A DNA stretch of 64,000 nt from the NCBI GenBank assembly GCA_038065395.1, contig JBBTRB010000003.1, forward strand, positions 19,851-83,850, written 5' to 3'. The stretch comes from Patescibacteria group bacterium (GTDB lineage Bacteria; Patescibacteriota; Minisyncoccia; Phycocordibacterales; PALSA-1337). Every line of letters starts with the position of its first letter. Within the stretch, counting starts at the first letter, position 1. The notes beneath the pieces were generated by a model. That model searched no databases. It was not told where the DNA came from and saw only the letters and a program-made list of their open reading frames with translations. Of the stretch, positions 3,590 through 23,208 are shown piece after piece. The position numbers and the translations under genes are program-made.

Positions 3590-3606
3590 CCAATCCCGCC
3601 TCTCCA

Positions 3607-3630: not shown

Positions 3631-3688
3631 TTTACTAGACAAAACTCCCCAACCGAGTAATATACGTTCTGGAAAGGAAAAGTTCATT

Positions 3689-4018: not shown

Positions 4019-4051
4019 CCATTGTTTTAAGTTGCCATCTTCCACCACACG

Positions 4052-4079
4052 CACCCCGATGTCATGTCGGGCTTTTTTA
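4052..4079. terminator. candidate bidirectional terminator between converging genes
   Basis: Hairpin cccga-tgtcatg-tcggg followed by TTTTTT; the AI-2E gene on the minus strand ends at 4080. Confidence 0.4.
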
Positions 4080-5099
4080 TTACACCTTCGGCATCTTACC
4101 TTTCTCAACGTCGTTGACATACTCCATACCAGCTGCGGCCAGAGGCACCGCAATGAGTGCACCGAGTACACCTGCGAGCTTCACCCCGATCACAAAAGAG
4201 AGAATAACGATGATCGGCGAGACTCCCACGACTTTGCGTACCACCAGCGGGTAGAAGACATGGTTCTCGAGTTGCTGGATCAGGACATAGAGCACCGCGA
4301 CCAATAGGCCGACACCTATGCCGTACGAGCCAAATGCAACCATCACTGCCGGTATAGCAGCGACGAATGGTCCGAAGACTGGGATGATCTCAAGGAGCCC
4401 TGCAAAGAGTGCCAGGAGGAGTGCATGCTTGATCCCCACAATACTGAGCATGATGTATACCAGTACCCCGACGATGAAGCCGAGTACTACCTGACCTTGC
4501 AACCACAGACCGATCTTCCGACGAGAACGTTTCCAGAGACCGATGATGTATTCGTGATGATGCAGGGGTGTGATAATACGCAGGAAGTCATCGACTCCCT
4601 CACCTTTTGCAGAAAGATAGAATGATAATGCAAAGATCAATACAAAAGAGATCACTCCTCCGGAGACTGCACTCACCGTCTGGAGTGTATTACCATCACT
4701 TACGAAATATGACTGTGCCAAGGCAATGAAGTCTGATATCGCGATCGTCTTGAGACCGAACAGTGACCCGTCACCAAGTGGCCCCCACACTTCTCCGAGA
4801 GAAATAGTAGCCGGAAGGTTGTTGAGGAATTCTAGTAGTTCTCGGATGACACGTGGCACCAGGAAGATCATCGCTCCGAGCAGAAGAAGTATGATGCTCA
4901 CATACATCACCACGACACTGGCGATACGATTGAGGCCTATACGTGCACAACGACGGATCACCGGTTCGATCGCGGAGGCAACCACGATGGCAGCAAGGAT
5001 CGAGAGTACAATATCGAAGAGATAGTATGCCGCAACCACCGAGAGACCAACTGCAAAAAATCTGACGATCGTGCCGGTACTGATAGAGATACGGTTCAT
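4080..5099 (-). CDS. AI-2E family transporter (PerM/YdiK-like permease)
   Basis: 339 aa polytopic membrane protein with the composition and length typical of UPF0118/AI-2E permeases. Confidence 0.7.
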   Translation of the reverse strand: MNRISISTGTIVRFFAVGLSVVAAYYLFDIVLSILAAIVVASAIEPVIRRCARIGLNRIASVVVMYVSIILLLLGAMIFLVPRVIRELLEFLNNLPATISLGEVWGPLGDGSLFGLKTIAISDFIALAQSYFVSDGNTLQTVSAVSGGVISFVLIFALSFYLSAKGEGVDDFLRIITPLHHHEYIIGLWKRSRRKIGLWLQGQVVLGFIVGVLVYIMLSIVGIKHALLLALFAGLLEIIPVFGPFVAAIPAVMVAFGSYGIGVGLLVAVLYVLIQQLENHVFYPLVVRKVVGVSPIIVILSFVIGVKLAGVLGALIAVPLAAAGMEYVNDVEKGKMPKV

Positions 5100-5143
5100 A
5101 ACCCTAGTATATACTCATCTCACGATCACACAAGACGAACGTG

Positions 5144-6421
5144 CTATTTTGCAGCGAAGGTAAAGTCTGACTTGAAGGCAGAATCATCTTTCACATTCCC
5201 TACCATCGCCATATTGAGATGCTGGTCTACGAAGATTTCCTGTGCCAGCTTTTGTATATCCGATGAGGTCACTGCACGAATCTTGGCAATGCTTTCTTCG
5301 AGGGTCTGCACTTTTCCTTTGAGAATCTCTTGTGAACCGACGAACTCCGACCTGGCTTCGGATGTTTCGAGTTCGAGCATGGTTGTACCGATCATGTAGT
5401 TCTTGGCTTTCTCGAGCTCGGCCTCTCCGACAGGTTCTGTTTTGAGACGTATACATTCTTCCATGATCCCTTTGACTGCTTCTCCGAGACGAGATACGTC
5501 TACTCCAGCGGCCAACACCACATTGCCATGGTCGGTATAGGTGTCATGTCCCGCGTTGACGTAATAACAGATGCCGAGTTGGTCGCGCATCTTGGAGAAA
5601 AGTCTCGAACTCATGCCCTTGCCGAGTACCGTCATCATCACATTCATCACCGGGATACGAGGATCGAACAGAGAGAACGAACGAACACCGATAGCAACGT
5701 GGGCTTGGTCAGTCTCTTTGTGCTTTATGACAAAGCGCGGAACATCTTGCTTCTCGATGACTTTGTCTTTGCCTTTCTTGGCAGATACAGAGAGACTTCC
5801 GAACAACTTCTCCACTTGTGTCTGTATCGTGCTCTCATCGAACGAACCTGCGACCACAACAGTAGTTGCCTGAGAGACATAGTGCTCTGAGCGATATGTT
5901 ATGAGCTGCTCTCGGGTGAACGAGCGCACGTGATCTTCAGTACCTGCAATACTCCACCCGGCTGGCTGATCTCCGTGGATCAATGCACTGAGCACATCAT
6001 GCACGTCTCTATGTGGCATGTCCTGATACATACGGATCTCTTCGACGATCACCCCCTTCTCTCGTTCGATCTCCTCTACCGGGAACATTGGGTTGAGATA
6101 CAAGTCCGAGACAATATCGAGAGCCTTGTCGAGTTGTTGTGCAGCGACTTTTGCATAGTAGCCGGTGTACTCCTGACCCGTGAAGGCGTTGTACTGTGCA
6201 CCGAGACCATCGAGCTCTCGAGAGATGTCGGTTGCTTTGGGACGTCGTGGCGTGCCTTTGAAGACCATATGTTCCAAGAAATGAGAGAGACCATTGATAT
6301 TTTTGGATTCATATTTTGATCCGGCTTCAACCATGACCAACACGGTGACCGATGGATTGTCTTTCATCGGGACAGTTATGAGTCGCAGCCCGTTCGGCAG
6401 GATTGTTTTGGTGAAGTTCAT
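5144..6421 (-). CDS. M16 family zinc metallopeptidase (pitrilysin/insulinase-like)
   Basis: Inverted zincin motif HFLEHMVFKGT (HxxEH) near the N-terminus; length 425 aa. Confidence 0.85.
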   Translation of the reverse strand: MNFTKTILPNGLRLITVPMKDNPSVTVLVMVEAGSKYESKNINGLSHFLEHMVFKGTPRRPKATDISRELDGLGAQYNAFTGQEYTGYYAKVAAQQLDKALDIVSDLYLNPMFPVEEIEREKGVIVEEIRMYQDMPHRDVHDVLSALIHGDQPAGWSIAGTEDHVRSFTREQLITYRSEHYVSQATTVVVAGSFDESTIQTQVEKLFGSLSVSAKKGKDKVIEKQDVPRFVIKHKETDQAHVAIGVRSFSLFDPRIPVMNVMMTVLGKGMSSRLFSKMRDQLGICYYVNAGHDTYTDHGNVVLAAGVDVSRLGEAVKGIMEECIRLKTEPVGEAELEKAKNYMIGTTMLELETSEARSEFVGSQEILKGKVQTLEESIAKIRAVTSSDIQKLAQEIFVDQHLNMAMVGNVKDDSAFKSDFTFAAK

Positions 6422-6446
6422 AGAAATGTAAGTTTAACTTTATTTT

Positions 6447-6527
6447 GTCATCCCCATGAAAATGGGGATCCAGGATGTCACCACACTCTGTGGCTAGATC
6501 CTGGATTCCCGCCTTCGCGGGAATGAC
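6447..6527. repeat. RPE-like palindromic repeat element, short form (copy 1)
   Basis: Left arm gtcatccccatgaaaatggggatccaggat, spacer, right arm atcctggattcccgccttcgcgggaatgac. Intergenic between the M16 peptidase start and the glyQS stop. Confidence 0.8.
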
Positions 6528-6529
6528 AA

Positions 6530-7858
6530 CTACTGAATCTTCCCTACCAGATACTCTACCAACTTATCTTCTGCGATACGCTCCTGCGTGCCACTATCAC
6601 GATCGCGTACGGTGACACCTTCTCCTTTTTCGATCGTCTCAAAGTCGACAGTAACGCAAAACGGTGTACCGATCTCATCTTGACGGCGATAACGTTTGCC
6701 GATGTTACCGTTGTCGTCGAAGATAACTCCGGGGATGTTGGCTTTTAGCGTAGAGAATACTTCTTGGGCTTTCTTGATGAGCTCAGGTTTATTCCTGAGC
6801 AGTGGAAAAACTGCCACTTTGTATGGTGCAACTGATGGGGTCAGTTTGAGATAGGTGCGTTTCTCGCCACCCATATCATCCTCGGTATAGGCATCAGTGA
6901 GAACCGCAAGTACGGTGCGGTCGAGACCAAATGATGGTTCGATGCAATGTGGGACGAACCTCTCTTTGCTCTCTTCGTCATAGTATGACAAATCTACCTT
7001 ACTAAATTCAGAGTGTTGCTTGAGGTCGAAGTCCGTGCGATACGCCAGACCATAGAGCTCTTTCTTGCCAAATGGGAAATCGAATTCGAAGTCGATCGTT
7101 CTCTTGGAATAGTGTGCCCTGTCACCGTCGGCAACTTCGAGTTCATGGACTTTGGCAGCGTTGAGTCCCACGTCTTTGGTGAAAGCCAAGACTTCCTGTC
7201 TGAAATGTTCGAAGGTTTTCTCCCACTCTTTTGGGTTGACGAAATACTCGATCTCCATTTGTTCGAACTCACGTGCACGGAACAAGAAATCTCGTGGAGC
7301 GATCTCGTTGCGGAATGCCTTGCCGATCTGTGCCATACCGAATGGCAGTTTCGGATGCAGTGAGTCAAGGATATTCTTGAAGTTCACGAACATACCTTGA
7401 GCTGTCTCTGGGCGCAGATACGACACCGATGAAGAGTCGTTACTTGCTCCGACCTGTGTCTTGAACATCATGTTGAAAGACTTCACCGGTTCCCAAGAAT
7501 TCTTGGTCTCACACTCAGGACAACTATCTGGCAACTGCCAACTCTTGTCTCCTGCTTGTGTGCCGATCTGATCCGCACGAAAACGATGTTTGCACTTTTT
7601 GCACTCTACGAGTGGATCGGCGAAGCCAGAGACGTGACCGGAGGCTTCCCAGGTACGCTGATTCATCAGGATCGCTGCGTCCATACCATACATATCGTCA
7701 CGAGTATCGACGAAACGTTTCCACCAGATCTGTTTGATATTGTTCTTGAGAGCAACTCCCAGTGGCCCATAATCCCAGGTACCAGCCAAGCCTCCATAAA
7801 CTTCCGATCCCTGAAAAATAAAACCTCTGCGTTTACAGAGAGCCACCAACGATTCCAT
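6530..7858 (-). CDS. glyQS: glycine--tRNA ligase (homodimeric GlyQS type)
   Basis: MESLVALCKRRGFIFQGSEVYGGLAGTWDYGPLG is the canonical class II GlyRS N-terminus. Start placed at the ATG preceded by an AAAGAGGA RBS; the ORF extends to 7885. Confidence 0.9.
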   Translation of the reverse strand: MESLVALCKRRGFIFQGSEVYGGLAGTWDYGPLGVALKNNIKQIWWKRFVDTRDDMYGMDAAILMNQRTWEASGHVSGFADPLVECKKCKHRFRADQIGTQAGDKSWQLPDSCPECETKNSWEPVKSFNMMFKTQVGASNDSSSVSYLRPETAQGMFVNFKNILDSLHPKLPFGMAQIGKAFRNEIAPRDFLFRAREFEQMEIEYFVNPKEWEKTFEHFRQEVLAFTKDVGLNAAKVHELEVADGDRAHYSKRTIDFEFDFPFGKKELYGLAYRTDFDLKQHSEFSKVDLSYYDEESKERFVPHCIEPSFGLDRTVLAVLTDAYTEDDMGGEKRTYLKLTPSVAPYKVAVFPLLRNKPELIKKAQEVFSTLKANIPGVIFDDNGNIGKRYRRQDEIGTPFCVTVDFETIEKGEGVTVRDRDSGTQERIAEDKLVEYLVGKIQ

Positions 7859-7892
7859 TGTGTCCTCTTTTTTCATATGTCGCATTGTATAC

Positions 7893-7923
7893 GAAAAAAG
7901 CCAGGACGGGAAGCGTCTTGGCT
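7893..7923 (-). terminator. leader-region intrinsic terminator immediately upstream of the glyQS RBS
   Basis: Minus strand reads AGCCAAGACG-CUUCCC-CGUCCUGGCU plus UUUUUU, about 30 nt before the start codon. Confidence 0.5.
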
Positions 7924-8239
7924 TGGAAAGTCACCCTCCCGTTCGATGTAGTACACCAGCGAGGAACCTTATCCGAAGGAGAACAAATTAACCTTCGGAG
8001 GCAAATGCCAGTAGAACGATCGGAACGGAAGGGTCCTGGTGGACGCCAGGAAAGTGGACCCGTCTTCAGAGAATACATTTTGGAGGTGGCGAGGAACCAG
8101 TCCTGGGATGTTGTCTGAAGACGGGCGGTATCACACTGAGGAGCACAAGATGTTATCACAACTCTGGTGGAGTTGGTCCAAACAACCTCTCGCGTCGTCA
8201 ACCCATATGACACCTAAAGGGTTCAAAGAATCTGACAGC
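7924..8239 (-). promoter_or_regulatory. long structured 5' leader of glyQS; candidate T-box-like attenuator
   Basis: About 345 nt between the promoter and the start, with several perfect hairpins. An alternative helix GGGAGGG...CCCGUCC overlaps the terminator 3' strand. The canonical T-box motif was not confirmed. Confidence 0.3.
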
Positions 8240-8269
8240 AGTATAACCGATATTAGGGATTTGTCAATA
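8240..8269 (-). promoter_or_regulatory. sigma70-like promoter for glyQS leader
   Basis: Minus strand reads TTGACA, a 16-17 nt spacer, then TATACT. Confidence 0.45.
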
Positions 8270-8677
8270 TTTTGCCAGATCTTGGCTCTGATCTTGCATT
8301 TTCCGTATGTCATATGACCACATATCCCCACCCTGCATAGCCATCGATATGAGTGCAACCATGAGGCCAAAATCTCGCACGCCCGTCGGTGTATATCCGA
8401 CCGACATGACTATCCCAGCCATATGGAGAGCCAGAAGCCCTGCAATGATCCTCACCCGAAATCCGACGAGGAGAAGTATCCCTGCAACCACTTCGAAAAG
8501 TCCGTTGAGTTTGATGAATGCAATAGCTGAGAGTGGCAACGAACCTGCCCAGTCAGGCAAGAATCCCGTCCACTTCTCAGGATGAAGGAGTTGTTGCGAT
8601 CCGAACCATACCATGACGAGCGTGATGCCTATACGGAGAACGACAGGAGCATATGACTTGAGCGTACTGGACTGCAT
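8264..8677 (-). CDS. DoxX family membrane protein
   Basis: MQSSTLKSYAPVVLRIGITLVMVWFGSQQL... with several TM segments. Start chosen at the internal ATG 8675-8677 directly after the stop of the upstream gene. Confidence 0.6.
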   Translation of the reverse strand: MQSSTLKSYAPVVLRIGITLVMVWFGSQQLLHPEKWTGFLPDWAGSLPLSAIAFIKLNGLFEVVAGILLLVGFRVRIIAGLLALHMAGIVMSVGYTPTGVRDFGLMVALISMAMQGGDMWSYDIRKMQDQSQDLAKY

Positions 8678-8678
8678 A

Positions 8679-9128
8679 TTATTTGAGTTCGCCGAGATAG
8701 AACTTGGTGAGCACGTTCGCTGGCGCCCCCTGACCACCATGTTGACCATTGAATGCGGCCGTGCCGTCCTTGCCACAGATCGAGAGTATCGCCTGCTCTC
8801 CACCTGGATGGTTACCGATCCATGAAGTCAGGTTGTAAACTTTGGCATTGATAGCACTCCAACAGTCGGTCTTGGATGCATGTGCTCCAACTTCGACCAT
8901 GGAATATGTCTTGACGGTACTTGTAGCTACTATCTGAGAACTTACCGAGACAGGAACCTTGACCGTAGGGATGCTCGTTGTACTGGTTGCAGTAGAAGTA
9001 ACAGGCGTAGTCGTCGCCACATTCTGCTCAACAGGTATAGTAACTGACACCTTGGAATCATTAGTGACTATATAGACACCACCTCCGATAAGGACAAGTA
9101 TGACGATGATTGAAATTATTTTTGACAT
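8679..9128 (-). CDS. membrane-anchored cytochrome b5-like heme-binding domain protein
   Basis: N-terminal TM helix, Thr/Ser-rich linker, and a C-terminal NHPGGEQAILSICGKDGTAAF (HPGG motif). Confidence 0.6.
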   Translation of the reverse strand: MSKIISIIVILVLIGGGVYIVTNDSKVSVTIPVEQNVATTTPVTSTATSTTSIPTVKVPVSVSSQIVATSTVKTYSMVEVGAHASKTDCWSAINAKVYNLTSWIGNHPGGEQAILSICGKDGTAAFNGQHGGQGAPANVLTKFYLGELK

Positions 9129-9140
9129 AAATCTATTATA

Positions 9141-11111
9141 CTATGGGTTTACATTCTCATCCCTCTCTCGATAGGCAGGATCGGTACTAAAGCGAGTGGT
9201 GATAGAGTCATGAGTACTTTCGAGCATACTCCCGGTAAAGTCGTCTATTGCCGTCAGCCGAGACTGATCTACGAGTATCGGCGCCTGCCCTACCAAGTTG
9301 ACCCCCGGCTCAAGAGAAACTTGGAATGCAACCTCTTTCCTCTGCTGTGAACCTGTCGTACCCGCTGGGATGTTACCTACGTCCCAGGTTATGGTGCCCT
9401 TGTTGCTGTCATAGGTGACACTCTCCGACGCGGGCGCTATCTGCCCCATCCATTTTATATATGCAGGTACAGACGCGGTGACTTGTGCATTATGAACGGC
9501 ATTGAAACCACTGTTGATAGTCCATAGTACGGTATAGGTCGTCTCTTGTTCGGCACGTGGAGGTATCGGGCCCGTGTTCGTGAATGGTCCGACTGTACGC
9601 AACGACCGTCCCGACAAACTCACATCAGAAGCGACTTTGATATTCTTGATCGCGGTAGACGTGAGCTTTTCTGGTACACGAGATTCTTGATTGCGGTTAC
9701 CCGAAATATCGACATGCACCGACACGATCGGGTTGGTGAGTGATGTCGCCTTGCTATTGGTCGGGGTTATGGAGAAAGACACCTTGCCACTATCACCAGC
9801 CGAGACCGATCCGAGCTCGGGTACTGAGATCTGATTCCAGACGATCTCGTTGTCGGCAGAACGATACGTACCGAGATCCGGCTGGATCGCAGTCTTGTCA
9901 TACGCATTCCCCGAGAGTCGTGCAGTGATGTTCATGTTGGATATAGGCACCGAGAGGTTGTTGAACCATGCGACCTCGACGCGCGTCGACTCACCGAAAC
10001 GTGCCACGTAATCTTCTTGGGCTTCGTTATTATTGACATACACTTCTACAGAAACGAACGGCTTTTGGATGGAGAGTTCTCGCTCGACACTGGCGTATTC
10101 AGTACCAATATCCTCTGGGTTACGAGAATGTTGTGCTCCAACGCGGAACCGGAAGACGCGCACATCTGTATTCTCTCCTTGGACGACACCTCGTATGGTG
10201 ATGGTGCGTTTCTGGCCAGGAGGTATGTCACCGATCCTCCAGGTATCCTGATCGAATGCCACCTTGGGATCAGATGACAAGAATTGGAATCCGAATGGAT
10301 ACTCCGCCTTGAGCACTACGTTTTTCAAAATTTCGGCAGAATTGGAGGTGACGTCTATATCAAAATCAAACTCCTGACCCGAAGTCACCTCAGTGAAAGA
10401 AGATACATTGAGCCCGATCGGTGACGAACTGATGAGTACGTCGTAGCTGCGTGTCTTGGTGAATACTGCAGAAGACCCTTTGACCGAATACGTGACGATC
10501 ACTTCGATCTGTTTTTGTAGATTCTCTTCACCGAATATCACTGCTTCGACGGTCTTATCGAGAGAGCGACCAGCGGGTATGTCACCGAGGAGTTCTTTGA
10601 AGATCTTGAGTTCTTTGGAAGTATCTTTGGGGTCGATCGTTCCATCAGGAAATGCTACTGCCAGATCCACAACCTGCAGGTCGACGTTGTTCTTGTTGGC
10701 AACCTTGATATCGAACTTGATGGGCTCCCCTCCTGAGACAGATACCGGACCGTTGATGACGATGTCGATATTGTCGGCAGAGATGAGGTTGGCCCCTTGG
10801 AAGAAAAGAAGTGCTCCGACACCGACCGCGATCGCGCAGAAGAGTGCAGATGCAATGAGTAGTTTGGTGAGAAATGACATAGGGATTTTCTCTTTGTAGG
10901 TTTCGTTAAGCTCGACAGGTTCGGACGGTGTCTCTACAGGACGTTCCCATGCAGTCGGCACCTCGGACGTCTTGTCAGAGAATCGTAGCTTGCGTCGCGT
11001 ACGCACATCAGGAGCCGATCGCGAATACAGCGACTTTTTGAGTTCTTCAATACGACCTTCATCCTCAGAGGGCATTGACTCAATTGTATAGTAAAAAGAG
11101 AAACCCGCCAA
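9141..11111 (-). CDS. large membrane-anchored extracellular protein (beta-rich, CARDB/DUF11-like repeats suspected)
   Basis: 656 aa with a single TM near residue 90 followed by a long Val/Thr/Asn-rich ectodomain. Confidence 0.55.
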   Translation of the reverse strand: MAGFSFYYTIESMPSEDEGRIEELKKSLYSRSAPDVRTRRKLRFSDKTSEVPTAWERPVETPSEPVELNETYKEKIPMSFLTKLLIASALFCAIAVGVGALLFFQGANLISADNIDIVINGPVSVSGGEPIKFDIKVANKNNVDLQVVDLAVAFPDGTIDPKDTSKELKIFKELLGDIPAGRSLDKTVEAVIFGEENLQKQIEVIVTYSVKGSSAVFTKTRSYDVLISSSPIGLNVSSFTEVTSGQEFDFDIDVTSNSAEILKNVVLKAEYPFGFQFLSSDPKVAFDQDTWRIGDIPPGQKRTITIRGVVQGENTDVRVFRFRVGAQHSRNPEDIGTEYASVERELSIQKPFVSVEVYVNNNEAQEDYVARFGESTRVEVAWFNNLSVPISNMNITARLSGNAYDKTAIQPDLGTYRSADNEIVWNQISVPELGSVSAGDSGKVSFSITPTNSKATSLTNPIVSVHVDISGNRNQESRVPEKLTSTAIKNIKVASDVSLSGRSLRTVGPFTNTGPIPPRAEQETTYTVLWTINSGFNAVHNAQVTASVPAYIKWMGQIAPASESVTYDSNKGTITWDVGNIPAGTTGSQQRKEVAFQVSLEPGVNLVGQAPILVDQSRLTAIDDFTGSMLESTHDSITTRFSTDPAYRERDENVNP

Positions 11112-11149
11112 CGAACAGTGGGTTTCCTGTTCGGGCGGGTAATGTCGAA

Positions 11150-11455
11150 TTATTCTGCCAGAGGCGAATGGAGCTCAAGCTCCAGCCCCTTACCAGTGAA
11201 GGCGGATAAGACGATGTTGCGGATTGAGTCATGAACACCCCCTCCTGGTTGAAGTAAGCTGAATTTTTTCAGCTCGTCTTCGTTGCTTCCAAACTTTTTG
11301 TAATCAGGATCTCTCTGACAAATCTGAACCAGATCGCTGACCTGAGTCACACCTGGAATTCCACAAGATTCCCAGAGGTGCTTGATTGACATCATCGTCA
11401 CCGTTACCAATTGCTCTGGTTCTTCAGCGCCATTTTTGAGTTTAACTGTTTTCAC
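11150..11455 (-). CDS. hypothetical protein
   Basis: 101 aa ORF with no recognisable motif. Confidence 0.35.
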   Translation of the reverse strand: MKTVKLKNGAEEPEQLVTVTMMSIKHLWESCGIPGVTQVSDLVQICQRDPDYKKFGSNEDELKKFSLLQPGGGVHDSIRNIVLSAFTGKGLELELHSPLAE

Positions 11456-11543
11456 GAAACAATCCTTTTGTTTGATTTTTCTCGGGTGATCCGAGTACTA
11501 TGGTTTCGGTATATATAGTAGCATATATAGTTACTTATGTCAA

Positions 11544-12218
11544 CTACAACTGTGACGCCTGCAAGGAAGCATTGATGATACCGTTCACTTGCACCCGTAT
11601 TGGTGAAAAAGTAGAGAGCAACTCGGCCGAGAGATCGTAGGACATGACGAATGGCTTGGTGACTTCATGGTCACCGATATAGCCGAGCAGGTTCAGGATA
11701 CGGAGCGCAGTGAGAGACTCGAGTTCCGGCAATTTCTCAGCGGGCATATGGCCACTTATTCCGACTGTTGACTCTAGACAGTCAAAAAGTTCTGGATGGG
11801 GATCTTCACCTTGCAGGAGGCGCTTGAGTAACGTGGACATACGGACGAGGAGTTGTGCGTGTATTTTTCTACTGTTTTTTAGTTTGTCATTCCCATGAAA
11901 ATGGGAATCCAGGATATCACCATGTCTTGTGAGCAGATCCTGGATTCCCGCTTGCGCCTCCGCTGCGCTTTGGCTTGCGGGAATGACAGACTGCTGCGCA
12001 CTCGTGAGCCTCCACACTTCTTTGCCCCTGACCAAAGAGAAAATACCGAGTGAATAGTCACTGGTATGGTAGCGGAGTTTCGACTTCTCGAGACGGATGC
12101 CTTGCGCGGCGACCGAGACGAGGCCAAGGTCACGCGTGAAGATCGACAACATCTTCCCTGCTTCGCCGTAGGGGCGTGAACCGATCACAAATCCAGGTGT
12201 AGTATGGATGCTGTACAT
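11544..12218 (-). CDS. recO: DNA repair protein RecO (short form) carrying an in-frame repeat insertion
   Basis: N-term GFVIGSRPYGEAGKMLSIFTRDLGLVSVAAQGIRLEKSKLR matches the RecO OB-fold. Codons 78-111 are encoded by the palindromic repeat. Confidence 0.7.
   Translation of the reverse strand: MYSIHTTPGFVIGSRPYGEAGKMLSIFTRDLGLVSVAAQGIRLEKSKLRYHTSDYSLGIFSLVRGKEVWRLTSAQQSVIPASQSAAEAQAGIQDLLTRHGDILDSHFHGNDKLKNSRKIHAQLLVRMSTLLKRLLQGEDPHPELFDCLESTVGISGHMPAEKLPELESLTALRILNLLGYIGDHEVTKPFVMSYDLSAELLSTFSPIRVQVNGIINASLQASQL
11886..11987. repeat. RPE-like palindromic repeat element (copy 2) inserted in-frame in recO
   Basis: 102 bp (34 codons) beginning on a codon boundary. Arms gtcattcccatgaaaatgggaatccaggat / atcctggattcccgc...gcgggaatgac. 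Encodes VIPASQSAAEAQAGIQDLLTRHGDILDSHFHGND. Confidence 0.8.
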
Positions 12219-12224
12219 CGTCTT

Positions 12225-15200
12225 TTATATTCTCACCGAGAACACTTCACCGTATTCTATAGCCGACAGTCCTGTTGTCTTCTTGATCTCCTGTTCGTAT
12301 TTCATAGCAAGAGGTCGCGCTTCTTCGGTGAGTGTAAGAATCGCCACATCATTCACAGAGAGATTTTTCTCTTTGCGAGCATCTTGGATCTTACGGATGA
12401 GTTCACGGAGATCTCCTTCTTCTTTCAAACTCGGAGTGATAGTGATATCGAGCTCGACATCCTGTGCGATCGAAGTGTCTGTTTTGACTTCTTTGACATT
12501 AACCTCGTCCTTCACAAGTTCGACGAGTTCTGGGGTCAACGATATTTCCTTCCTGACTTTGAGTGTCTGTAGTGGCTGACGAACATTGATCTTGGATTTC
12601 ATACGAGCTTCGAGACCGCGTGAGGCGAGATCACGTACGGTTTGCATATCGGTGATGAGGTTCTTATCGACTATTCCTGCTACTGGCCACTGCTCCAGAT
12701 GCACACTCTCCTTGTCACCTCCTACTTCCTGGTAGAGATACTCTGCGAAGAACGGCGTGAATGGCGCCATGACTTTCGCAAGTGTCACGAGAACATAGTG
12801 AGTCGTCTCCAGTGCATGTCGTGCATCTTCGCCACCATCTTTGAATCGGTCACGTGAACGACGCACATACCACTGTGACAAGTCGGCAATGAAGTCACGT
12901 ATCGCGCGTGTAGGTTCAAGTAACACGTACGCATCCAGACCTGTGGTCACATGCCCCACCAGTTCATCGAGCTTGGAAACAATCCATTTATCTAGCACGT
13001 GCGATGAATTGTTCAATTGTTCCTTTGTTGAATTGTTCCTTGTCCCTTCGTACATCTTATAAAACGTCGTGACATTCGTAACCAAGTTGAACACTTTTTT
13101 GATGATCTCATCGACGGTCTTCTGGTCGAAGTTCTTTGACTCGCCAGGTTGGTTGACCGAGTACATCCAGAAGCGCAATGCATCTGCACCATAGAGATCC
13201 ATCATGTCCCATGGGTTGACCACGTTGCCGATGGATTTGCTCATCTTCTTACCCTCAGCGTCGAGGATATGCCCGAGACAGATGACATTCTTGAATGCCT
13301 TGCCTTTGCCCATGAGTGCACCGATCGCATGGAGCGTATAGAACCACCCACGTGTCTGATCGATGGCTTCGGAGATAAAATCTGCAGGATAGTTGGTGGC
13401 TTTCTTGATCCCCAACAGCTTGCCGTCGATACGATCCTTATTCTCAAAAGGATAATGATCCTGTGCAAAAGGCATCGCCCCCGAGTCGAACCATACGTCC
13501 ATGACTTCTTTGACACGCTTCATCGGAGAACCGCATGAACATGTGAGCGTGACTTCATCTATATACGGACGATGAAGATCGAGTTCGTATTCATGGTTAT
13601 GAGGGAGGATGGAGAAATCCAAGACATGGAACTGTGCATTGTGTATAAAATCCACATCTTTGCGCATGTGCATGGACTCAGATCTATTCCAACCCTTGGC
13701 CGCAGCGAACAAGAGGAATGCGGGCGTCTCATGAGTGACGATCAGGATCTTCTTGCCTTCATGAGTACGTTCCATATCGTACAAAAAGTCACCCATGCGT
13801 TTCTTGATATCGGCGAATGTCTCACCTCCTTCGGGTGCCTGGGTAAATCGGTCGTGACCCTTAAAACCTTTCACAAAATCAGAAACACTCGTCCCATCTG
13901 CAGAACCAGTACCGAGTTCACGGAGACGCTCATCTGTATGCATCGCGCCCTTATCGAGACCCCACGTACTGCGAAGTATTTCTGCGCTTTCTTGCGTACG
14001 CACGAATGGTGACACATATATCATATCGAACTTTTCTTTCTTGAGAGCTTCAGCGGCCACAGTGACCTGAGTCTTTCCTTTCTCTGTGAGATGATGCGGA
14101 ACATCTGCCTTACCAGAAAGGATCGCCTTCACGTTATTCTCTGCCTCTCCATGTCGCATGACATAGTAGGTATTCTTGGGCTTCTGCGCGATCTCTGCCA
14201 CAGATCCTACGACCTGCCTTTTGTCACATCCAGTACATGCCCACACAGGCAGAGGCGTACCCCAATACCGTTCGCGTGAGATCGCCCAGTCTTTGACTTC
14301 TCGGAGCCATTCACCGAACCGACCCTGTCCGATATGAGCAGGTTCCCAAGCAATCTCTGTGTTCTCTGTGACGAGCTTGTCACGGAGCTCGGACATACGG
14401 ATATACCACGAGTCACGCGCAAAATAGATAAGCGGTGTTTTGCAACGCCAACAATGTGGGTAGGTATGCTCGTGTTTCTCTTTATGGAAAAGGAGGCTGC
14501 CCTCTGGGCGGAGCGCCAAGTTCTTGATGATCTCCACGGCAACTTCTTCGCTCTTCACAAACTTACCTGCAAGAAAACCAGCCTCAGACTTGAATGTGCC
14601 GTCATCGTTAACCAGATGATATTTTGGTAAGCCCACCTTTGTGCCAAGCTCAAAGTCGTCTTGGCCATACATCGGCGCGATATGGACGATGCCTGTACCA
14701 TCTTCAGTTGTAACAAAGTCCCCCGCGTATACCTTGAAGGCATTACTGAGCTTGTCTTTCTCTGTGCCGGTCACTCCGTCTTTCAAGAATGGATACAGTG
14801 GTTCATATTCGAGACCAACGAGGTCAGAGCCTTTGAATTCTTTTTCAATTTGATAGGATTCTTTGATCAAACTGAGACGAGTTTTTGCAAGGATGACTCG
14901 GGCGTCCGCGGTCTGATCCTGGATTCCCGTTTTCACGGGAATGACAATCTGGACATACTCAACATCGTTCCCTACCGCCAATCCGACGTTGCCCGGAAGA
15001 GTCCACGGAGTCGTCGTCCATGCCAAAAGAAATGTATTCTTGAATCTTGGATCCTGAATCTTGAACTTAACGTAAACCGACAAGTCTTTGACTGTCTCAT
15101 ACCCCTGCGCGAGTTCATGCGACGAGAGCCCGGTACCGCAGCGCGGACACCATGGTACGACTTTGTAATCCTTATAGAGGAGTTTCTTCTGTTCAACTGT

Positions 15201-15707
15201 CTTGACGATATTCCACAACGACTCGATATAGTTCGGCCTGTAGGTCACGTAGGGATCCTTGAGGTCGACCCAGTACCCCATGCGGTCAGTGAACTTCTCC
15301 CATTCACCGACATATCTCCAGACACTCTCTTTGCATTTCTCATTGAACTTTTCTATGCCGTAGACTTCGATCTCTTTTTTCGACTTGAGTCCGAGCTCTT
15401 TCTCGACTTGGAGTTCCACAGGTAGACCGTGAGTGTCCCAGCCTCCCTTACGACGAACATGGAAGCCCTGCATGGTTTTGTAACGAGGGATAGCGTCCTT
15501 GAAAGCACGAGCCTCGAGGTGGTGGATACCGGGCATGCCGTTGGCTGTCGGAGGTCCTTCGAAGAAGGTGAACTCTCCTTGTGGCGCGTCTTTGTTCAGA
15601 GTCTTGGCGAAGATCCCCTTCTCCTTCCAGGACGCAAGGATACGCTCCTCACGTTCAGCATGAGTGCTTTTGGTATTCTTCTTTTCTGGGGTAACAGGTT
15701 CAGACAT
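12225..15707 (-). CDS. ileS: isoleucine--tRNA ligase with an inserted histidine-phosphatase (PGAM-like) domain
   Basis: 1160 aa with KMSKS, WCPRCGT, TTPWTLP editing and DLHRPYIDE motifs. An extra ~200 aa between the Zn knuckle and DLHRP carries YVMRHGEAENN and SPFVRTQESAEIL. Confidence 0.95.
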   Translation of the reverse strand: MSEPVTPEKKNTKSTHAEREERILASWKEKGIFAKTLNKDAPQGEFTFFEGPPTANGMPGIHHLEARAFKDAIPRYKTMQGFHVRRKGGWDTHGLPVELQVEKELGLKSKKEIEVYGIEKFNEKCKESVWRYVGEWEKFTDRMGYWVDLKDPYVTYRPNYIESLWNIVKTVEQKKLLYKDYKVVPWCPRCGTGLSSHELAQGYETVKDLSVYVKFKIQDPRFKNTFLLAWTTTPWTLPGNVGLAVGNDVEYVQIVIPVKTGIQDQTADARVILAKTRLSLIKESYQIEKEFKGSDLVGLEYEPLYPFLKDGVTGTEKDKLSNAFKVYAGDFVTTEDGTGIVHIAPMYGQDDFELGTKVGLPKYHLVNDDGTFKSEAGFLAGKFVKSEEVAVEIIKNLALRPEGSLLFHKEKHEHTYPHCWRCKTPLIYFARDSWYIRMSELRDKLVTENTEIAWEPAHIGQGRFGEWLREVKDWAISRERYWGTPLPVWACTGCDKRQVVGSVAEIAQKPKNTYYVMRHGEAENNVKAILSGKADVPHHLTEKGKTQVTVAAEALKKEKFDMIYVSPFVRTQESAEILRSTWGLDKGAMHTDERLRELGTGSADGTSVSDFVKGFKGHDRFTQAPEGGETFADIKKRMGDFLYDMERTHEGKKILIVTHETPAFLLFAAAKGWNRSESMHMRKDVDFIHNAQFHVLDFSILPHNHEYELDLHRPYIDEVTLTCSCGSPMKRVKEVMDVWFDSGAMPFAQDHYPFENKDRIDGKLLGIKKATNYPADFISEAIDQTRGWFYTLHAIGALMGKGKAFKNVICLGHILDAEGKKMSKSIGNVVNPWDMMDLYGADALRFWMYSVNQPGESKNFDQKTVDEIIKKVFNLVTNVTTFYKMYEGTRNNSTKEQLNNSSHVLDKWIVSKLDELVGHVTTGLDAYVLLEPTRAIRDFIADLSQWYVRRSRDRFKDGGEDARHALETTHYVLVTLAKVMAPFTPFFAEYLYQEVGGDKESVHLEQWPVAGIVDKNLITDMQTVRDLASRGLEARMKSKINVRQPLQTLKVRKEISLTPELVELVKDEVNVKEVKTDTSIAQDVELDITITPSLKEEGDLRELIRKIQDARKEKNLSVNDVAILTLTEEARPLAMKYEQEIKKTTGLSAIEYGEVFSVRI
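14916..14945. repeat. solo arm of the RPE-like element inside ileS (in-frame)
   Basis: atcctggattcccgttttcacgggaatgac; on the coding strand it encodes VIPVKTGIQD (10 codons). Confidence 0.6.
15041..15065. repeat. 25-nt mini-repeat (CYTGAATCTTRRATCCTRWATCTTG family) inside ileS
   Basis: tgaatcttggatcctgaatcttgaa encodes KFKIQDPRF; similar to two copies in argS. Confidence 0.4.
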
Positions 15708-15758
15708 GGAGTAAAAGTAAAGCTATTTTAGCATATTGGCAAGTTCGAACCTCGCTCC

Positions 15759-17498
15759 TTACATCCTCTCAGGAATTTTGATACCGAGGATCCACAGACC
15801 ATTCCTCATCACCGTTAGAAACGCTTTGGTTACTGCGACGCGATATGCGGACAACGGTTCCTTTTCATCGACAATAACATTCGTGGCGTAGAAGGCATTG
15901 AATGCTCCTGCTAGTTGGATCAAATATCCTGCCACATGTTGCGGTGCATACTCGGCACGTGCACGAGCGATGATATCTGGAAAACGAACTATCAGTCTTT
16001 CGAGAGTACTGACTTGGATAGACGGCATGTCCTGAATCTTGAATCCTGTATCTTGAATCTGTTTTGCCTTCTCCAGAACCGCTCCCGCTCTCACTGCCGC
16101 ATACTGCAGATATGGACCCGAGTCTCCTTCGAATGATACCGACGTCGCAGAATCAAAGATCACGTCACTACCTACGGCTTGACGGAGGATCGTGTATTTG
16201 ATCGCACCGATCGCGATCTCATCACTTACTTTCTCAGCTTCTTCGGGACCAAATTCTCTACCCGAAATCTTTTCTGTTACCAGTTCCTTGATATCATCGA
16301 TCAGACTTTCTGCAGCAATGATATTGCCTTTGCGTGAAGACATTTTCCCTGAAGCAAAGCGCAACATGCCATGACTCATGTGTTTGGTCTTGTCCCCGAT
16401 CTTTGGATTGACCAACGAAAACACTTTCAGAAGTACTTTGAAATAATCACTCTGTTCATTGGCAGTGATGATCACTGACTCATCGAGATCTGGATACAAT
16501 TCGAACTTTTTGCTGTTGAGGCCGAGCTCTTTGGTCTCGTAGGTTGGTAGACCATTGGAAGTGATGAAGACGCGTGTATGCACTCCATAGTCTTCTCCTT
16601 TGAAAATAGTTGCACCCTCACTTTCTATGAATACTTTGCCGAGAAATTCTTTGACGATCTGTACACCCGCATCGGCGACTTCGCTTTCGAAGAAAAAGTT
16701 ATTAAACTTCGTACCGAGACGCGCATAGATCGTGTCAAAATATTCGAGACTCCACTTCCTCCCTTCTTCATACATCTTGTTGATTTCTGGATCAGACTTT
16801 TCGAAGATCTGTTTGTTGATCGCATGTATCTCCTTCTGTGCCACCGCATCGTCTTCGAAAGCATTCGAACCGATCACGTACATCTCACCGAGCCATTTCA
16901 CCTTCTCAGTAATTGTTGAACTCTCTTGAATCTTAAATCCTAAATCTTGCCTCTTGTTTTGTATTGCCCAAATCGTCTTCGCCACATGCAACCCCACATC
17001 ACCCTGGTAACAGGCACGGACAACCTCTGCACCTGATGACTGGACCAGACGTGAAATAGACTCGCCTACTGCGTTCGACATCAAGTGTCCAATATGAAAA
17101 ACCTTGAAAGGGTTTGGGTCGGTATACTCGACCATGACCTTTTTGCTTTTCGAATCAGTCGCCCACCCATATTCCCCGTCACCACTCGCGATCTCCACTA
17201 CCTTCCCCGCAAAGACAGCATCTTTTATCTTGAAGTTGACGAACCCGGGACCAGCGATAGTGATCTGCTCCACAAACTCGAGATCAGCCTTCTCAAGTTC
17301 TGCGACGATCTCTTCTGCCAAAGCACGCGGGCTGACTCCCTTCTTTTTTGCGTACGCCAATGCGACGTTGGTAGCATAGTCACCATGATCCAGGCTCTCT
17401 GGATATTCGAGACGAACTGAGGAAGGGTCCGTAGTAGCAAGGCCTACCCTTGCAAGCGCCGTAACGAGGGCGGCAGTGAGTTCTTGACGCATATTCAT
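15759..17498 (-). CDS. argS: arginine--tRNA ligase
   Basis: 579 aa with HIGHLMSNAVGES (HIGH) and MSSRKG (KMSK) class I motifs. Confidence 0.9.
   Translation of the reverse strand: MNMRQELTAALVTALARVGLATTDPSSVRLEYPESLDHGDYATNVALAYAKKKGVSPRALAEEIVAELEKADLEFVEQITIAGPGFVNFKIKDAVFAGKVVEIASGDGEYGWATDSKSKKVMVEYTDPNPFKVFHIGHLMSNAVGESISRLVQSSGAEVVRACYQGDVGLHVAKTIWAIQNKRQDLGFKIQESSTITEKVKWLGEMYVIGSNAFEDDAVAQKEIHAINKQIFEKSDPEINKMYEEGRKWSLEYFDTIYARLGTKFNNFFFESEVADAGVQIVKEFLGKVFIESEGATIFKGEDYGVHTRVFITSNGLPTYETKELGLNSKKFELYPDLDESVIITANEQSDYFKVLLKVFSLVNPKIGDKTKHMSHGMLRFASGKMSSRKGNIIAAESLIDDIKELVTEKISGREFGPEEAEKVSDEIAIGAIKYTILRQAVGSDVIFDSATSVSFEGDSGPYLQYAAVRAGAVLEKAKQIQDTGFKIQDMPSIQVSTLERLIVRFPDIIARARAEYAPQHVAGYLIQLAGAFNAFYATNVIVDEKEPLSAYRVAVTKAFLTVMRNGLWILGIKIPERM
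16029..16055. repeat. 27-nt mini-repeat copy inside argS
   Basis: Coding strand caagatacaggattcaagattcaggac encodes QDTGFKIQD. Confidence 0.4.
16931..16957. repeat. 27-nt mini-repeat copy inside argS
   Basis: Coding strand caagatttaggatttaagattcaagag encodes QDLGFKIQE; 22/27 nt identical to the 16029 copy. Confidence 0.4.
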
Positions 17499-18185: not shown

Positions 18186-18211
18186 CCCCGATATCTGTCG
18201 GGGTGTTTTTT
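18186..18211 (+). terminator. intrinsic terminator
   Basis: ccccga-tatctg-tcgggg followed by TTTTTT. Confidence 0.55.
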
Positions 18212-19409
18212 ATCTCCTCAAAACCTCATCTATCCTCTTTGCAATCTTCCTAAAATCTTTTTCCTTTTTGCCACGAGTCGTCTCTGCAGCAGTGCCGAGA
18301 CGGATACCGGATGGGTCAACTGCGCTGCGCGTCTCACCAGGGATGGTGTTCTTGTTCACGATGATGCCCACCTTCTCTAGTCGATCACTGGCATCTTTCC
18401 CTGAAATACCTTGCCCGCCCATCCAGGTGTCCATGAGGACAAGATGACTATCCGTGCCGCCAGAGATGATCTTCCAGCCGAGAGTCTTGAGTTCATCGGC
18501 CAATGCTGCAGCATTCTTCACCACCTGTGTAGCGTATTTTTTGAAAGCTGGAGTAGAGGCTTCTTTGAGTGCAACCGCTACCGCCGCGATCTGGTTGAGG
18601 TGAGGTCCACCCTGAAGTCCCGGGAATACCGCCTTGTCGATCAGCTCGCCGAAGGTCTGCTCTTTGCCTTTTGAATTTACGATCTTCTTATCAGTTCTTG
18701 AAAAGATCAGTGCACTGCGTGGACCACGGAGAGTCTTGTGTACCGTGGTAGTGACCACATCTGCATATGGGAATGGTGACGGATAGGCCTTGCCCGCAAC
18801 CAGTCCCGCGAAGTGCGACATATCCACCATCAGGATCGCACCACAGGCATCGGCGATCTCACGGAGCTTTTTGAAGTCTACCGTGCGCGGATATGCCGTG
18901 AATCCTCCGACGATGATCGCCGGCTTCTCGGACAGTGCCTTGGTCTTGAGATCTTCATAGTCGATAGTCTCAGTTTTGGGATCAACTCCGAACGGAACCT
19001 GGACCCACACCTTGCCGGTCATCGAAACTTTGTGACCATGAGTCAGATGTCCCCCGTGATCGAGTGACATACCCATGATCTTGCCTCCGAGCGGGACCAG
19101 TGCCAAATACACCGCCAGGTTCGCTGGTGATCCCGAGAGCGCCTGTACATTGACCTGCCACTCTGTAGGACTGAGACTGAATAATTTCAACGCGCGCTCT
19201 TGTGCCAGAGACTCGACCTTGTCGACGACCTGGTTACCACCATAATATCTCTTGCCTGGATAGCCTTCGGCGTATTTGTTGGTCAGTTCCGAACCCAATG
19301 CTTCGAGCACGTCTTTTGAGACTATGTTCTCTGAGGCAATGAGGTTGATGACGCTTTTCTGGCGCTTCTTCTCGGCATCTATGAGCTTTTTGATCTGGGC
19401 ATCTTTCAT
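18210..19409 (-). CDS. glyA: serine hydroxymethyltransferase
   Basis: 399 aa with TNKYAEGYPGKRYYGGNQVVD and the PLP-lysine context HKTLRGPR. Confidence 0.95.
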   Translation of the reverse strand: MKDAQIKKLIDAEKKRQKSVINLIASENIVSKDVLEALGSELTNKYAEGYPGKRYYGGNQVVDKVESLAQERALKLFSLSPTEWQVNVQALSGSPANLAVYLALVPLGGKIMGMSLDHGGHLTHGHKVSMTGKVWVQVPFGVDPKTETIDYEDLKTKALSEKPAIIVGGFTAYPRTVDFKKLREIADACGAILMVDMSHFAGLVAGKAYPSPFPYADVVTTTVHKTLRGPRSALIFSRTDKKIVNSKGKEQTFGELIDKAVFPGLQGGPHLNQIAAVAVALKEASTPAFKKYATQVVKNAAALADELKTLGWKIISGGTDSHLVLMDTWMGGQGISGKDASDRLEKVGIIVNKNTIPGETRSAVDPSGIRLGTAAETTRGKKEKDFRKIAKRIDEVLRR

Positions 19410-21043: not shown

Positions 21044-21955
21044 ATGAAACCTACCGACCAAAGAACTCCCGATTCTCAATATCAACGCTTGCTTCGAGAT
21101 ATCCTAGAAAAGGGTGAACGAAGTAGTAGTCAGCAAGGAGTTGATACCATCAGTCTGATCGGTCCTTCACCACTTCGTTTCAAACTTGAGAATGGTTTCC
21201 CTATTATCAATGAACGCAACATGGCGCCGAAAGAGTCTGACCGGCTACCTGTGACTGTATGGAAGCAGGCTATAGGAGAAATATGCGCCTTTGCAAATGG
21301 TGTACGTACCCAGAAAGGTCTCGAAGAGTTTGGATGTCACTGGTGGAGCTCGTGGGTCACCGAAGAAAAATGCAAAAAGCGTGGTCTTGAAACTGGCGAT
21401 CTCGGACCAGGTTCGTATGGCGCAGCATTCCACGACTTTCCTACTGCCGAGGGTACGCCTTACAATCAATTCCAAAATATCATCGAACAGATCATCGAGT
21501 TCCCTCATCTGAAAACTCATTTCATTTCCCCTTGGATCCCTCAGTACATCATTCGAGGAACAGGTAAACAGCAAAAAGTAGTTGTATGTCCATGTCATGG
21601 CTGGATTCATTTTCGTGTACTGGATAACAAGTTGACCCTTCACATGTTCCAACGTTCCGGAGACGTACCAGTAGGCGTTCCTTCGAACATGGTTCAGTAT
21701 GCGGCCCTCCTTATGATGGTTGCGCAGGTTACCAACACTATCCCTTATGAATTCGTTCATAGCTTTTCGGATGCACATATCTTCGTAGATCAAATCCCTG
21801 CAGTCGAGACGATGCTTGCACGTGAACCAAAACCATTTGCAACCATGAAGATCGATACCTCTGTCAAAGACTTTTTTGAGTTCAGAAAAGATCATTTCAC
21901 TCTCGAAGATTACAATCCTCATCCAGGAATAAAAGGTATTCCTGTTGCAATATAA
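21044..21955 (+). CDS. thymidylate synthase (ThyA) family protein, divergent
   Basis: CPCHGWIHFRV (catalytic Cys), FQRSGDVPVGVPSNMVQY (R, S, D, N conserved), DLGPGSYG and HPGIKGIPVAI. Phosphate-binding Arg positions appear substituted (by-eye alignment). Confidence 0.75.
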   Translation: MKPTDQRTPDSQYQRLLRDILEKGERSSSQQGVDTISLIGPSPLRFKLENGFPIINERNMAPKESDRLPVTVWKQAIGEICAFANGVRTQKGLEEFGCHWWSSWVTEEKCKKRGLETGDLGPGSYGAAFHDFPTAEGTPYNQFQNIIEQIIEFPHLKTHFISPWIPQYIIRGTGKQQKVVVCPCHGWIHFRVLDNKLTLHMFQRSGDVPVGVPSNMVQYAALLMMVAQVTNTIPYEFVHSFSDAHIFVDQIPAVETMLAREPKPFATMKIDTSVKDFFEFRKDHFTLEDYNPHPGIKGIPVAI

Positions 21956-23177: not shown

Positions 23178-23208
23178 CCTCTTGCGAGAAAATCGCGGGA
23201 GGTTTTTT
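23178..23208. terminator. bidirectional intrinsic terminator
   Basis: cctcttgcga-gaaaa-tcgcgggagg (with G-U pairs) followed by TTTTTT, between converging genes. Confidence 0.5.

Follow-up and report, generated by a model that had tools for sequence, protein, structure and literature searches.

A branch-1 histidine phosphatase domain nested in a type-2 isoleucyl-tRNA synthetase of Patescibacteria, with free-standing and fused counterparts

Hydrolytic domains nested in the catalytic core of class Ia aminoacyl-tRNA synthetases are, to our knowledge, confined to the editing domains, which are inserted into connective peptide 1 (CP1) of the Rossmann fold of isoleucyl-, valyl- and leucyl-tRNA synthetase (IleRS, ValRS and LeuRS), provide these enzymes with a second active site and are universal in the family. 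A curated precedent for an extra enzymatic domain in IleRS exists in the form of NF040702, an IleRS with an N-acetyltransferase (GNAT) domain. Equally, a histidine phosphatase of branch 1 has been joined to a nucleic-acid enzyme in the RNase HI/acid phosphatase proteins, and we know of no settled biological substrate for the phosphatase domain of these fusions. Free-standing branch-1 phosphatases of solved structure include PhoE (YhfR) of Bacillus stearothermophilus (1EBB/1H2E) and the phosphoserine phosphatase PspA of Hydrogenobacter thermophilus (4IJ5/4IJ6). Here, a stretch of 64,000 nucleotides from a Patescibacteria group bacterium (assembly GCA_038065395.1, contig JBBTRB010000003.1; 'the window' in the following) has been analysed, in which the gene ileS encodes a type-2 IleRS (IleRS2) that carries a complete branch-1 histidine phosphatase domain in the zinc knuckle of its second connective peptide (CP2).

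The host part of this protein resembles the described IleRS2 enzymes (PDB 8C8U, 8C8V, 8C8W and 1ILE; PMC10485003) in the order of its HUP domain, CP1 editing domain, CP2 knuckle, KMSKS motif, anticodon-binding domain and type-2 C-terminus. In the known enzymes, however, about 5-9 residues join the cysteine pairs of CP2, whereas here a second enzyme of about 200 residues takes this place. PhoE is like the insert in its catalytic residues, its size of about 200 residues and its fold, and PspA is likewise among the closest solved relatives, but both proteins are free-standing and their identity to the nested domain is only 24-32%. The insert shares with the CP1 editing domain the character of a hydrolytic domain that is nested in a connective peptide of the Rossmann core as a second active site. 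The editing domain, on the other hand, has another fold, hydrolyses the ester of mischarged tRNA instead of transferring a phosphoryl group to histidine, and is found throughout the family, whereas the phosphatase insert is limited to certain lineages and can be replaced by a free gene. NF040702 possesses a GNAT enzyme instead of a phosphatase, and its profile offset assigns this domain to the CP1 region rather than to the CP2 knuckle. The RNase HI/acid phosphatase model (PRK07238; mycobacterial Rv2228c type) matches the insert with 75 bits, below its cut-off of 326, and describes an end-to-end fusion with another partner. None of the three, CP1 editing domain, GNAT-bearing IleRS and RNase H/phosphatase fusion, is the same thing as the nested phosphatase.

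The original prediction, made from the letters of the window, had not recognised such a fusion as described, and a literature search has equally found no published account of an IleRS-phosphatase fusion; the word phosphatase is absent from the whole text of a 2026 preprint that annotates 96,219 IleRS architectures. The architecture is widespread and already present in databases under generic names, yet no study of it was found. Names in use include 'valyl-tRNA synthetase/broad specificity phosphatase PhoE' in the JGI annotation; many insert-bearing IleRS and ValRS are labelled by the NCBI pipeline as 'class I tRNA ligase family protein' and not as isoleucine- or valine--tRNA ligase.

Architecture of the synthetase and of its nested phosphatase

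The protein is encoded by a single uninterrupted open reading frame (ORF) of 1160 codons on the reverse strand with no internal stop (coordinates of all features in Table 1). The ileS equivalog TIGR00392 of NCBIfam matches it with 876.5 bits (cut-off 621.4) in two stretches, one on either side of the insert, and the Pfam match to tRNA-synt_1, divided by His_Phos_1, runs from residue 23 to 509 and resumes past the insert. The type-2 C-terminal domains are present, with Anticodon_1 at residues 906-1048 and DUF5915 at 1038-1152, and the IleRS2 structures are the best solved relatives of the host part by sequence and fold. Both zinc sites are intact, the first one in the form of CPRC/CWRC. Throughout 43 insert-bearing homologues G60, H62, H63, K820-K824 and the two CP2 cysteine pairs C491/C494 and C723/C725 are invariant, as are the CP1 editing motifs WTTTPWT and GTGIVH in the homologues. 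The GXHH signature is reported to confer hyper-resistance to mupirocin on IleRS2 (PMC10485003); the models for MupA and MupB reach 776 and 751 bits against a cut-off of 1900, and NF040702 reaches 299.8 against 1999. The host is a complete type-2 IleRS, passing all available sequence and fold tests, and a second ileS was not found within the window.

Alignment to the IleRS of Thermus thermophilus (1ILE) equates its residues 401-478 with 431-508 and its residues 488-569 with 709-799 of the present protein, so that a CP2 knuckle tip loop of about 9 residues gives way to about 200; the matching gap in Priestia megaterium IleRS2 comprises residues 477-481. As the HUP domain borders have been placed at residues 40-168 and 513-632 (PMC10485003), the insertion site is assigned to CP2. 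The junctions on either side are short, and the phosphatase domain is seated directly on the zinc knuckle. The inserted complete phosphatase domain of the original prediction, which placed it at 13590-14190, past the zinc knuckle and ahead of the DLHRPYID block, is confirmed by a strong profile match and by the 1ILE alignment, which brackets the roughly 200 residues at precisely this place; the agreement lies well outside what chance would give. The coordinates correspond to residues 506-706 of the one ORF, and the strings quoted in support are all present (CTGC at 491-494, VMRHGEAEN at 516-524, SPFVRTQESAEIL from 566, ILIVTHETPAF from 654 and DLHRPYID at 710-717). The proposed signature of the phosphoglycerate-mutase type is equally borne out, with VMRHGEAEN fitting the PROSITE-style pattern [LIVM]-x-R-H-G-[EQ]-x-x-[WN].

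A missing match to the profile His_Phos_1 (PF00300) had been named as a refutation; the hidden Markov model search proposed for this purpose gives a clear match (E=4.2e-33, 115.1 bits against a gathering cut-off of 21.7, profile positions 2-170 of 194). By profile, catalytic core and fold the insert belongs to branch 1 of the histidine phosphatase superfamily. The catalytic set announced as RHG, R and H is found in R518-H519, R570 and H659, and these residues, together with N525, E597, E629 and R637, are invariant among close homologues and about 100% conserved in 155 copies of the domain from all contexts, with glutamate or aspartate at position 597. On the other hand, the insert is the least conserved region of the protein, with a mean column identity of 0.58 as compared to 0.75-0.87 in the IleRS core. 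This low conservation outside of the active site would fit a non-catalytic module, a structural, dimerising or ligand-sensing element, as would the occurrence of two to four tandem copies in some IleRS and ValRS; PhoE and proteins of the dPGM type dimerise. A non-catalytic role is nevertheless very improbable, as the near-total conservation of the catalytic residues in copies that have diverged down to about 30% identity, over a background of 58% column identity, argues for selection on catalysis. With its full active site under purifying selection, the domain is apparently active.

The structure prediction that had been called for was performed with AF2, which folds the domain confidently (pLDDT 85-95 within the full protein; pTM 0.81 for the domain alone) into a fold of the phosphatase type. 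The best Foldseek matches are PspA, PhoE, a riboflavin-pathway phosphatase, GpgP and CobC, with a TM-score of 0.74-0.76, a root-mean-square deviation (rmsd) of about 3.3 A and a probability of 1.00; in sequence PhoE (E=5e-15) comes closest among solved proteins, ahead of PspA (E=1e-11). After the catalytic glutamate the domain shows the PhoE pattern of a hydrophobic residue followed by a glycine (E-[ILV]-x-x-G), in the place where mutases carry E-R-H-Y-G. That a glycolytic cofactor-dependent phosphoglycerate mutase had been fused to IleRS might have been concluded from the PROSITE-type signature and from dPGM_arch as the best match of phosphatase type in NCBIfam. The identification is, however, rejected and hardly credible, with a dPGM_arch score of 80.8 bits against a cut-off of 225, the PhoE-type motif after the glutamate and mutase superpositions at an rmsd of 6-7.5 A instead of 3.3 A; furthermore, a genome that harbours the domain nested in ValRS (see below) encodes a cofactor-independent phosphoglycerate mutase and enolase nearby. 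The insert is of the phosphatase and not of the mutase type, and may be counted as phosphoglycerate mutase in metabolic reconstructions of Patescibacteria. Further NCBIfam scores stay below the respective cut-offs for GpmB (42 against 261), PRK01112 (30.6 against 320), ribazole_cobC (79.7 against 162.9), PspA (59.4 against 350) and SixA (41.3 against 74.5, with a match limited to the N-terminal 70 residues or so). The domain is not basic, with a mean net charge of about -1.4, and the insert found no match in the PADLOC defence library. Both the insert and the free phosphatase described below match phrog_12933, a phage family of unknown function (E 1e-21 to 1e-25), which indicates that some phages encode a similar histidine phosphatase.

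As the window derives from a metagenome-assembled genome, a separate phosphatase gene could in principle have been joined to ileS where a frameshift was collapsed or a stop codon dropped out, an assembly error that had been named as the second possible refutation. This reading has virtually no probability left and is already refuted by the recurrence of the architecture. The domain has IleRS sequence on both sides in one reading frame, and hundreds of independent assemblies, drawn from four sources, show the same arrangement. In three of the sources together, 5 contigs carry the identical protein, and all 120 nearest homologues (61-100% identity, 1064-1242 residues; NCBI, JGI, ENA and Logan) combine PF00300 with IleRS domains. 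The insert alone as a query retrieved 12,189 matches from 1.84 billion representatives; among the best 150 of these, 99 possess IleRS flanks with the domain at the same site, and these flanks are as low as 37-45% in identity. When one genome per species was scanned, the segment of flank, insert and flank was detected in at least 80 species, labelled as Nomura-, Zambryski-, Yanofsky-, Jorgensen- and Sungbacteria and other groups of the Paceibacteria type, and, at 29-34% identity, Peregrinibacteria/Peribacteria. Equally, the composition of the insert is that of its host gene, with an indistinguishable guanine-plus-cytosine (GC) content and a codon-frequency cosine of 0.876 (control segments 0.880 +/- 0.016).

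Free, fused and nested forms of the phosphatase

The original prediction had proposed to check relatives for the same fusion versus a separate gene, and both states exist. A free-standing family of about 305 members in Patescibacteria, with about 190 residues and roughly 30-37% identity to the insert, is encoded between argS and an insert-free ileS in nine out of nine contigs (eight looked up and one found independently). The order in these contigs is argS, phosphatase, ileS, small ORF, recO and DUF11/CLIPPER protein, with a few additional genes separating argS from the phosphatase in one of them; the insert-free ileS product has 928-966 residues where called intact. The free phosphatase gene is separated from its neighbours by gaps of 1-3 nucleotides or overlaps with them by stop and start codon, which argues for co-transcription and probably translational coupling. 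The window displays the same block, composed of argS, an ileS that contains the phosphatase, recO, a small ORF and the gene of the DUF11 protein, and synteny is kept in the nested-form loci of the 80 species wherever the flanks reach. All 71 nested loci of the Paceibacteria type contain exactly one phosphatase copy, the nested one. With one copy either beside or inside ileS per locus, the free and the nested form are distributed in a complementary manner. In one Nealsonbacteria-type contig a reverse transcriptase (RVT_1) and a bAvd-like accessory gene (L083, 3597-4959) lie between argS and the free phosphatase; such a pair is a hallmark of diversity-generating retroelements. One free phosphatase (P0274) is named 'isoleucyl-tRNA synthetase' by JGI.

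The history of the two states has been addressed with neighbour-joining trees with 200 bootstraps, of IleRS with the insert removed and ValRS as outgroup and of the phosphatase domain with PhoE as outgroup. None of the 200 replicates of the IleRS tree recovers the free or the nested state as monophyletic, and one free-state IleRS (L091) clusters with IleRS of the nested type in 96.5% of them. The seven Nealsonbacteria-type free genes group together with 95% support in the phosphatase tree, and the L091 phosphatase joins this clade in 40% of the replicates only. Taken together, the two trees imply that the free and the nested form have been interconverted at least twice. The basal placement of one free-state group has a support of 41% only, and the trees do not fix the ancestral state. 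The topology of an earlier, star-like domain tree, which included several gene fragments as 'free' members, has not been used.

Attachment of the phosphatase is not restricted to the CP2 knuckle. In one ArgRS (P0259) it follows the C-terminus without a linker, an arrangement to be expected if argS lost its stop codon within the operon. In ValRS of a different lineage, with names including Magasanikbacteria and Falkowbacteria, the same phosphatase subfamily is nested after the motif 'DTWFSSG...LGWP', in a loop different from the IleRS site (for example P0228, P0389-P0446 and L090 at 6001-9168). This architecture comprises dozens of clusters at 45-64% identity, and close relatives without the insert exist. 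Capture of a neighbouring gene was considered for the ValRS fusion and rejected, since an unfused relative has no adjacent phosphatase gene.

Multiplication of the domain occurs as well. One IleRS (P0193) has a second copy near residue 886, and P0169 consists of an N-terminal part of ValRS followed by four tandem phosphatase copies. In loci of the Peribacteria/Peregrinibacteria type, seven out of nine contain two phosphatase matches in ileS (L072-L080; at about 4500-8950 in L072-L079). The five such IleRS that were analysed in detail have 1465-1491 residues with two tandem domains at the CP2 site, both with RHG/RHA; neither the knuckle cysteines nor the DLHRP motif has been retained, and a regular expression for canonical KMSKS found no match in them. 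A fusion of the phosphatase to TsaC (Sua5/YrdC; P0251) is a single case, and a scan of metagenome contigs found no further one, only the phosphatase half in IleRS or in the context of argS, free phosphatase gene and ileS. Where the phosphatase is fused among the 150 closest relatives, its partner, apart from tandem copies of itself, is a class Ia synthetase and in one case TsaC. An IleRS-like protein of 1066 residues (P0208) carries a segment like a REP-associated tyrosine transposase at 326-472, the phosphatase at 680-854 and a GNAT domain at 921-1065. Together with the NCBIfam model ileS_w_GNAT this protein suggests that the IleRS loops of some bacteria accept whole foreign domains; equally, P0208 could be a chimeric gene call.

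Possible roles beside the class Ia synthetases

We consider it somewhat more probable than the opposite that the protein is a bifunctional enzyme whose phosphatase operates beside class Ia synthetases and has a diffusible substrate. The type-2 IleRS would charge and proofread tRNA-Ile in the normal way, and the PhoE/PspA-like phosphatase in the tip of the CP2 knuckle would hydrolyse a terminal phosphoryl group via a phospho-His519 intermediate, with R518, R570, N525 and H659 presumably holding the phosphate and E597 serving as the acid; a phospho-histidine mechanism is the established chemistry of the superfamily. The nested domain would represent the fused form of the phosphatase which other Patescibacteria encode between argS and ileS, with the same function whether free, fused or nested. 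It would act in trans or on a substrate that diffuses, and would remain close to, or in a constant ratio with, class Ia synthetases. That it is functionally tied to these enzymes, which convert ATP to AMP and pyrophosphate, is on balance mildly favoured, because of the identity of the fusion partners, the retention of the phosphatase at the locus through switches of state and the independent fusion to ValRS. Channelling between the phosphatase and the synthetic site is unlikely, as the attachment point varies from the CP2 knuckle, a site near the anticodon domain and the ValRS loop to the ArgRS C-terminus or no attachment at all.

Several observations weigh against this proposal. The conserved block also retains recO and the gene of the DUF11 protein, which are unrelated, so adjacency alone is no proof of a functional link, and the fusions to ArgRS and TsaC are both singletons. 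As the insert reaches no NCBIfam subfamily cut-off, substrate specificity cannot be transferred from a relative; the close characterised relatives all act on ordinary small phosphomonoesters, with which a generic housekeeping role fits equally well. Moreover, the full-length AF2 model has a pTM of 0.60, which bears on the orientation of the phosphatase towards the synthetic site and the tRNA. The unrelated genes of the block would suit the main rival, a housekeeping small-molecule phosphatase, mechanistically unconnected with aminoacylation, that was part of a frozen argS-ileS block, became neutrally fused or nested in drift-prone small genomes and thereby gained the expression of an essential gene. 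Its nearest characterised relatives are metabolic phosphatases, the ArgRS and IleRS fusions could easily have arisen from adjacent genes, and the nesting of a GNAT and of a transposase-like domain in IleRS indicates that the loops may be permissive. Such a neutral origin is rather unlikely, however. The ValRS fusion arose in another loop and lineage, with an unfused relative that has no neighbouring phosphatase gene, no other kind of large protein has been found as partner among the 150 closest relatives, and at least two switches of state have left the phosphatase at a single place of the argS-ileS locus.

With respect to the substrate of the bifunctional enzyme, pyrophosphate released by the adenylate-forming synthetases is the leading candidate, a guess that might well prove wrong and is to be regarded as doubtful, followed by the guess of a nucleotide or another small phosphomonoester. 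Pyrophosphate is favoured because it is the shared product of these synthetases and chemically feasible for the mechanism; on the other hand, the literature yielded no precedent for a branch-1 histidine phosphatase that hydrolyses pyrophosphate. Ap4A hydrolysis and proofreading, two of the roles raised in the original prediction, are chemically unlikely for a fold that removes terminal phosphoryl groups. Another, processing of tRNA ends in cis, is weakened by the occurrence of the phosphatase as a free protein or attached at quite different points.

More generally, the domain might remove a 3'(2')-phosphate or a pyrophosphate from the CCA end of tRNA, left by nuclease damage or by toxin pyrophosphorylation, before charging. 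RelA/SpoT-homologue toxins pyrophosphorylate tRNA CCA ends, and the well-supported fusion partners all bind tRNA acceptor ends and would all be hampered by a blocked 3' end. A function on tRNA ends is nevertheless improbable. The attachment differs between CP2, the region near residue 886, the ArgRS C-terminus by the anticodon-binding domain and none; TsaC, the single-case partner, does not bind tRNA; and the domain is not basic. An activity on RNA ends is absent among the branch-1 sequence and fold matches, known defence systems are not matched, and we know of no branch-1 histidine phosphatase that acts on RNA ends.

Slightly less probable still is a protein phosphatase that strips inhibitory phosphates from class I synthetases or a translation factor and guards against kinases targeting the KMSKS region. 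Branch 1 includes the protein phosphatases SixA, Sts-1 and PGAM5, some kinase toxins target class I synthetases (HipA phosphorylates GltX), and action in trans would tolerate any geometry of attachment. The closest relatives by sequence and structure, however, are small-molecule phosphatases, the score for SixA remains below its cut-off, and PADLOC gave no match. The conserved neighbourhood of the ileS locus contains no kinase, and the genes annotated in the window are housekeeping genes only, with neither a pyrophosphatase nor a kinase or toxin among them.

In a large part of Patescibacteria the phosphohydrolase might even be an obligatory partner of class Ia synthetases, either as a translationally coupled gene at argS-ileS or as a third active site of IleRS or ValRS, a proposition that we put forward tentatively and that has a lesser chance of being right than of being wrong. 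Such a partner would perform a step that other bacteria handle elsewhere or skip, be it the removal of pyrophosphate or another by-product or the dephosphorylation of tRNA or synthetase, and would constitute a new class of synthetase accessory activity beside editing. A second, unrelated and apparently active enzyme in the class Ia core is found across a bacterial radiation and, independently, in ValRS, and the natural split version with a separate gene makes the question experimentally tractable by comparison of the free, fused and nested forms. Should the phosphatase assist aminoacylation, translation in ultra-small, host-dependent bacteria would have a requirement that has gone unrecognised; should it be unconnected with aminoacylation, it would be a clear example of essential genes of streamlined genomes absorbing their neighbours into permissive loops.

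Genomic context of the window

Table 1. Features of ileS, its nested phosphatase domain and neighbouring genes in the window (positions in nucleotides of the 64,000-nucleotide stretch; residue numbers refer to the ileS product)
Feature	Position	Strand	Remarks
MetRS	746-2293	same as ileS	
DUF11 protein	9141..11111	-	same block; small ORF between recO and this gene
Class II synthetase with HGTP anticodon domain	6530-7885	same as ileS	
recO	11544..12218	-	6 nucleotides downstream of ileS
ileS, type-2 isoleucyl-tRNA synthetase with nested phosphatase, 1160 residues	12225..15707	-	TIGR00392, 876 bits; no internal stop
IleRS C-terminal part, residues 707-1160 (DLHRPYID, WFDSG, second Rossmann half, anticodon-binding and DUF5915 domains)	12225..13589	-	
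KMSKS, residues 821-825	13233..13247	-	
CP2 zinc knuckle, second cysteine pair C723/C725	13533..13541	-	just downstream of insert
Nested branch-1 histidine phosphatase domain, residues 506-706	13590..14192	-	
Pfam His_Phos_1 match, residues 515-682	13662..14165	-	
H659, second catalytic histidine	13731..13733	-	
E597, predicted general acid	13917..13919	-	aligns with Glu of PhoE 'DERLREI'
R570, second catalytic arginine (SPFVR motif)	13998..14000	-	
R518-H519-G520, phosphate-binding Arg and nucleophilic His	14148..14156	-	R518 and H519 invariant in close homologues
IleRS N-terminal part, residues 1-505 (first Rossmann/HUP half, CP1 and editing domain, CP2 to first knuckle half)	14193..15707	-	
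CP2 zinc knuckle, first cysteine pair C491/C494	14226..14237	-	just upstream of insert
GTGIVH, CP1 editing motif, residues 337-342	14682..14699	-	
WTTTPWT, CP1 editing-site motif, residues 230-236	15000..15020	-	
G60-I-H-H63, non-canonical GXHH form of class I HIGH signature	15519..15530	-	
argS	15759..17498	-	51 nucleotides upstream of ileS

Four aminoacyl-tRNA synthetase genes, including those for IleRS and ArgRS, are encoded on one strand within 17 kb (746-17498). They are followed by a folate/one-carbon and pyrimidine cluster with genes for SHMT (18210-19409), ThyA (21044-21955), a dCMP deaminase-like protein (23207-24082), a DHFR-like protein (24683-25237) and FolD (28114-28965). Further along the window, at 39979-41916, 47460-48527, 50021-52414 and 55387-56973, two P-type (E1-E2) ATPases, the larger of which carries a heavy-metal-associated domain, a DsbD_2/HMA membrane protein and a large serine recombinase of 528 residues are encoded. 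The GC content dips to 0.42-0.45 around 42-54 kb, and the stretch with the P-type ATPases and the recombinase may be a mobile metal-resistance region.

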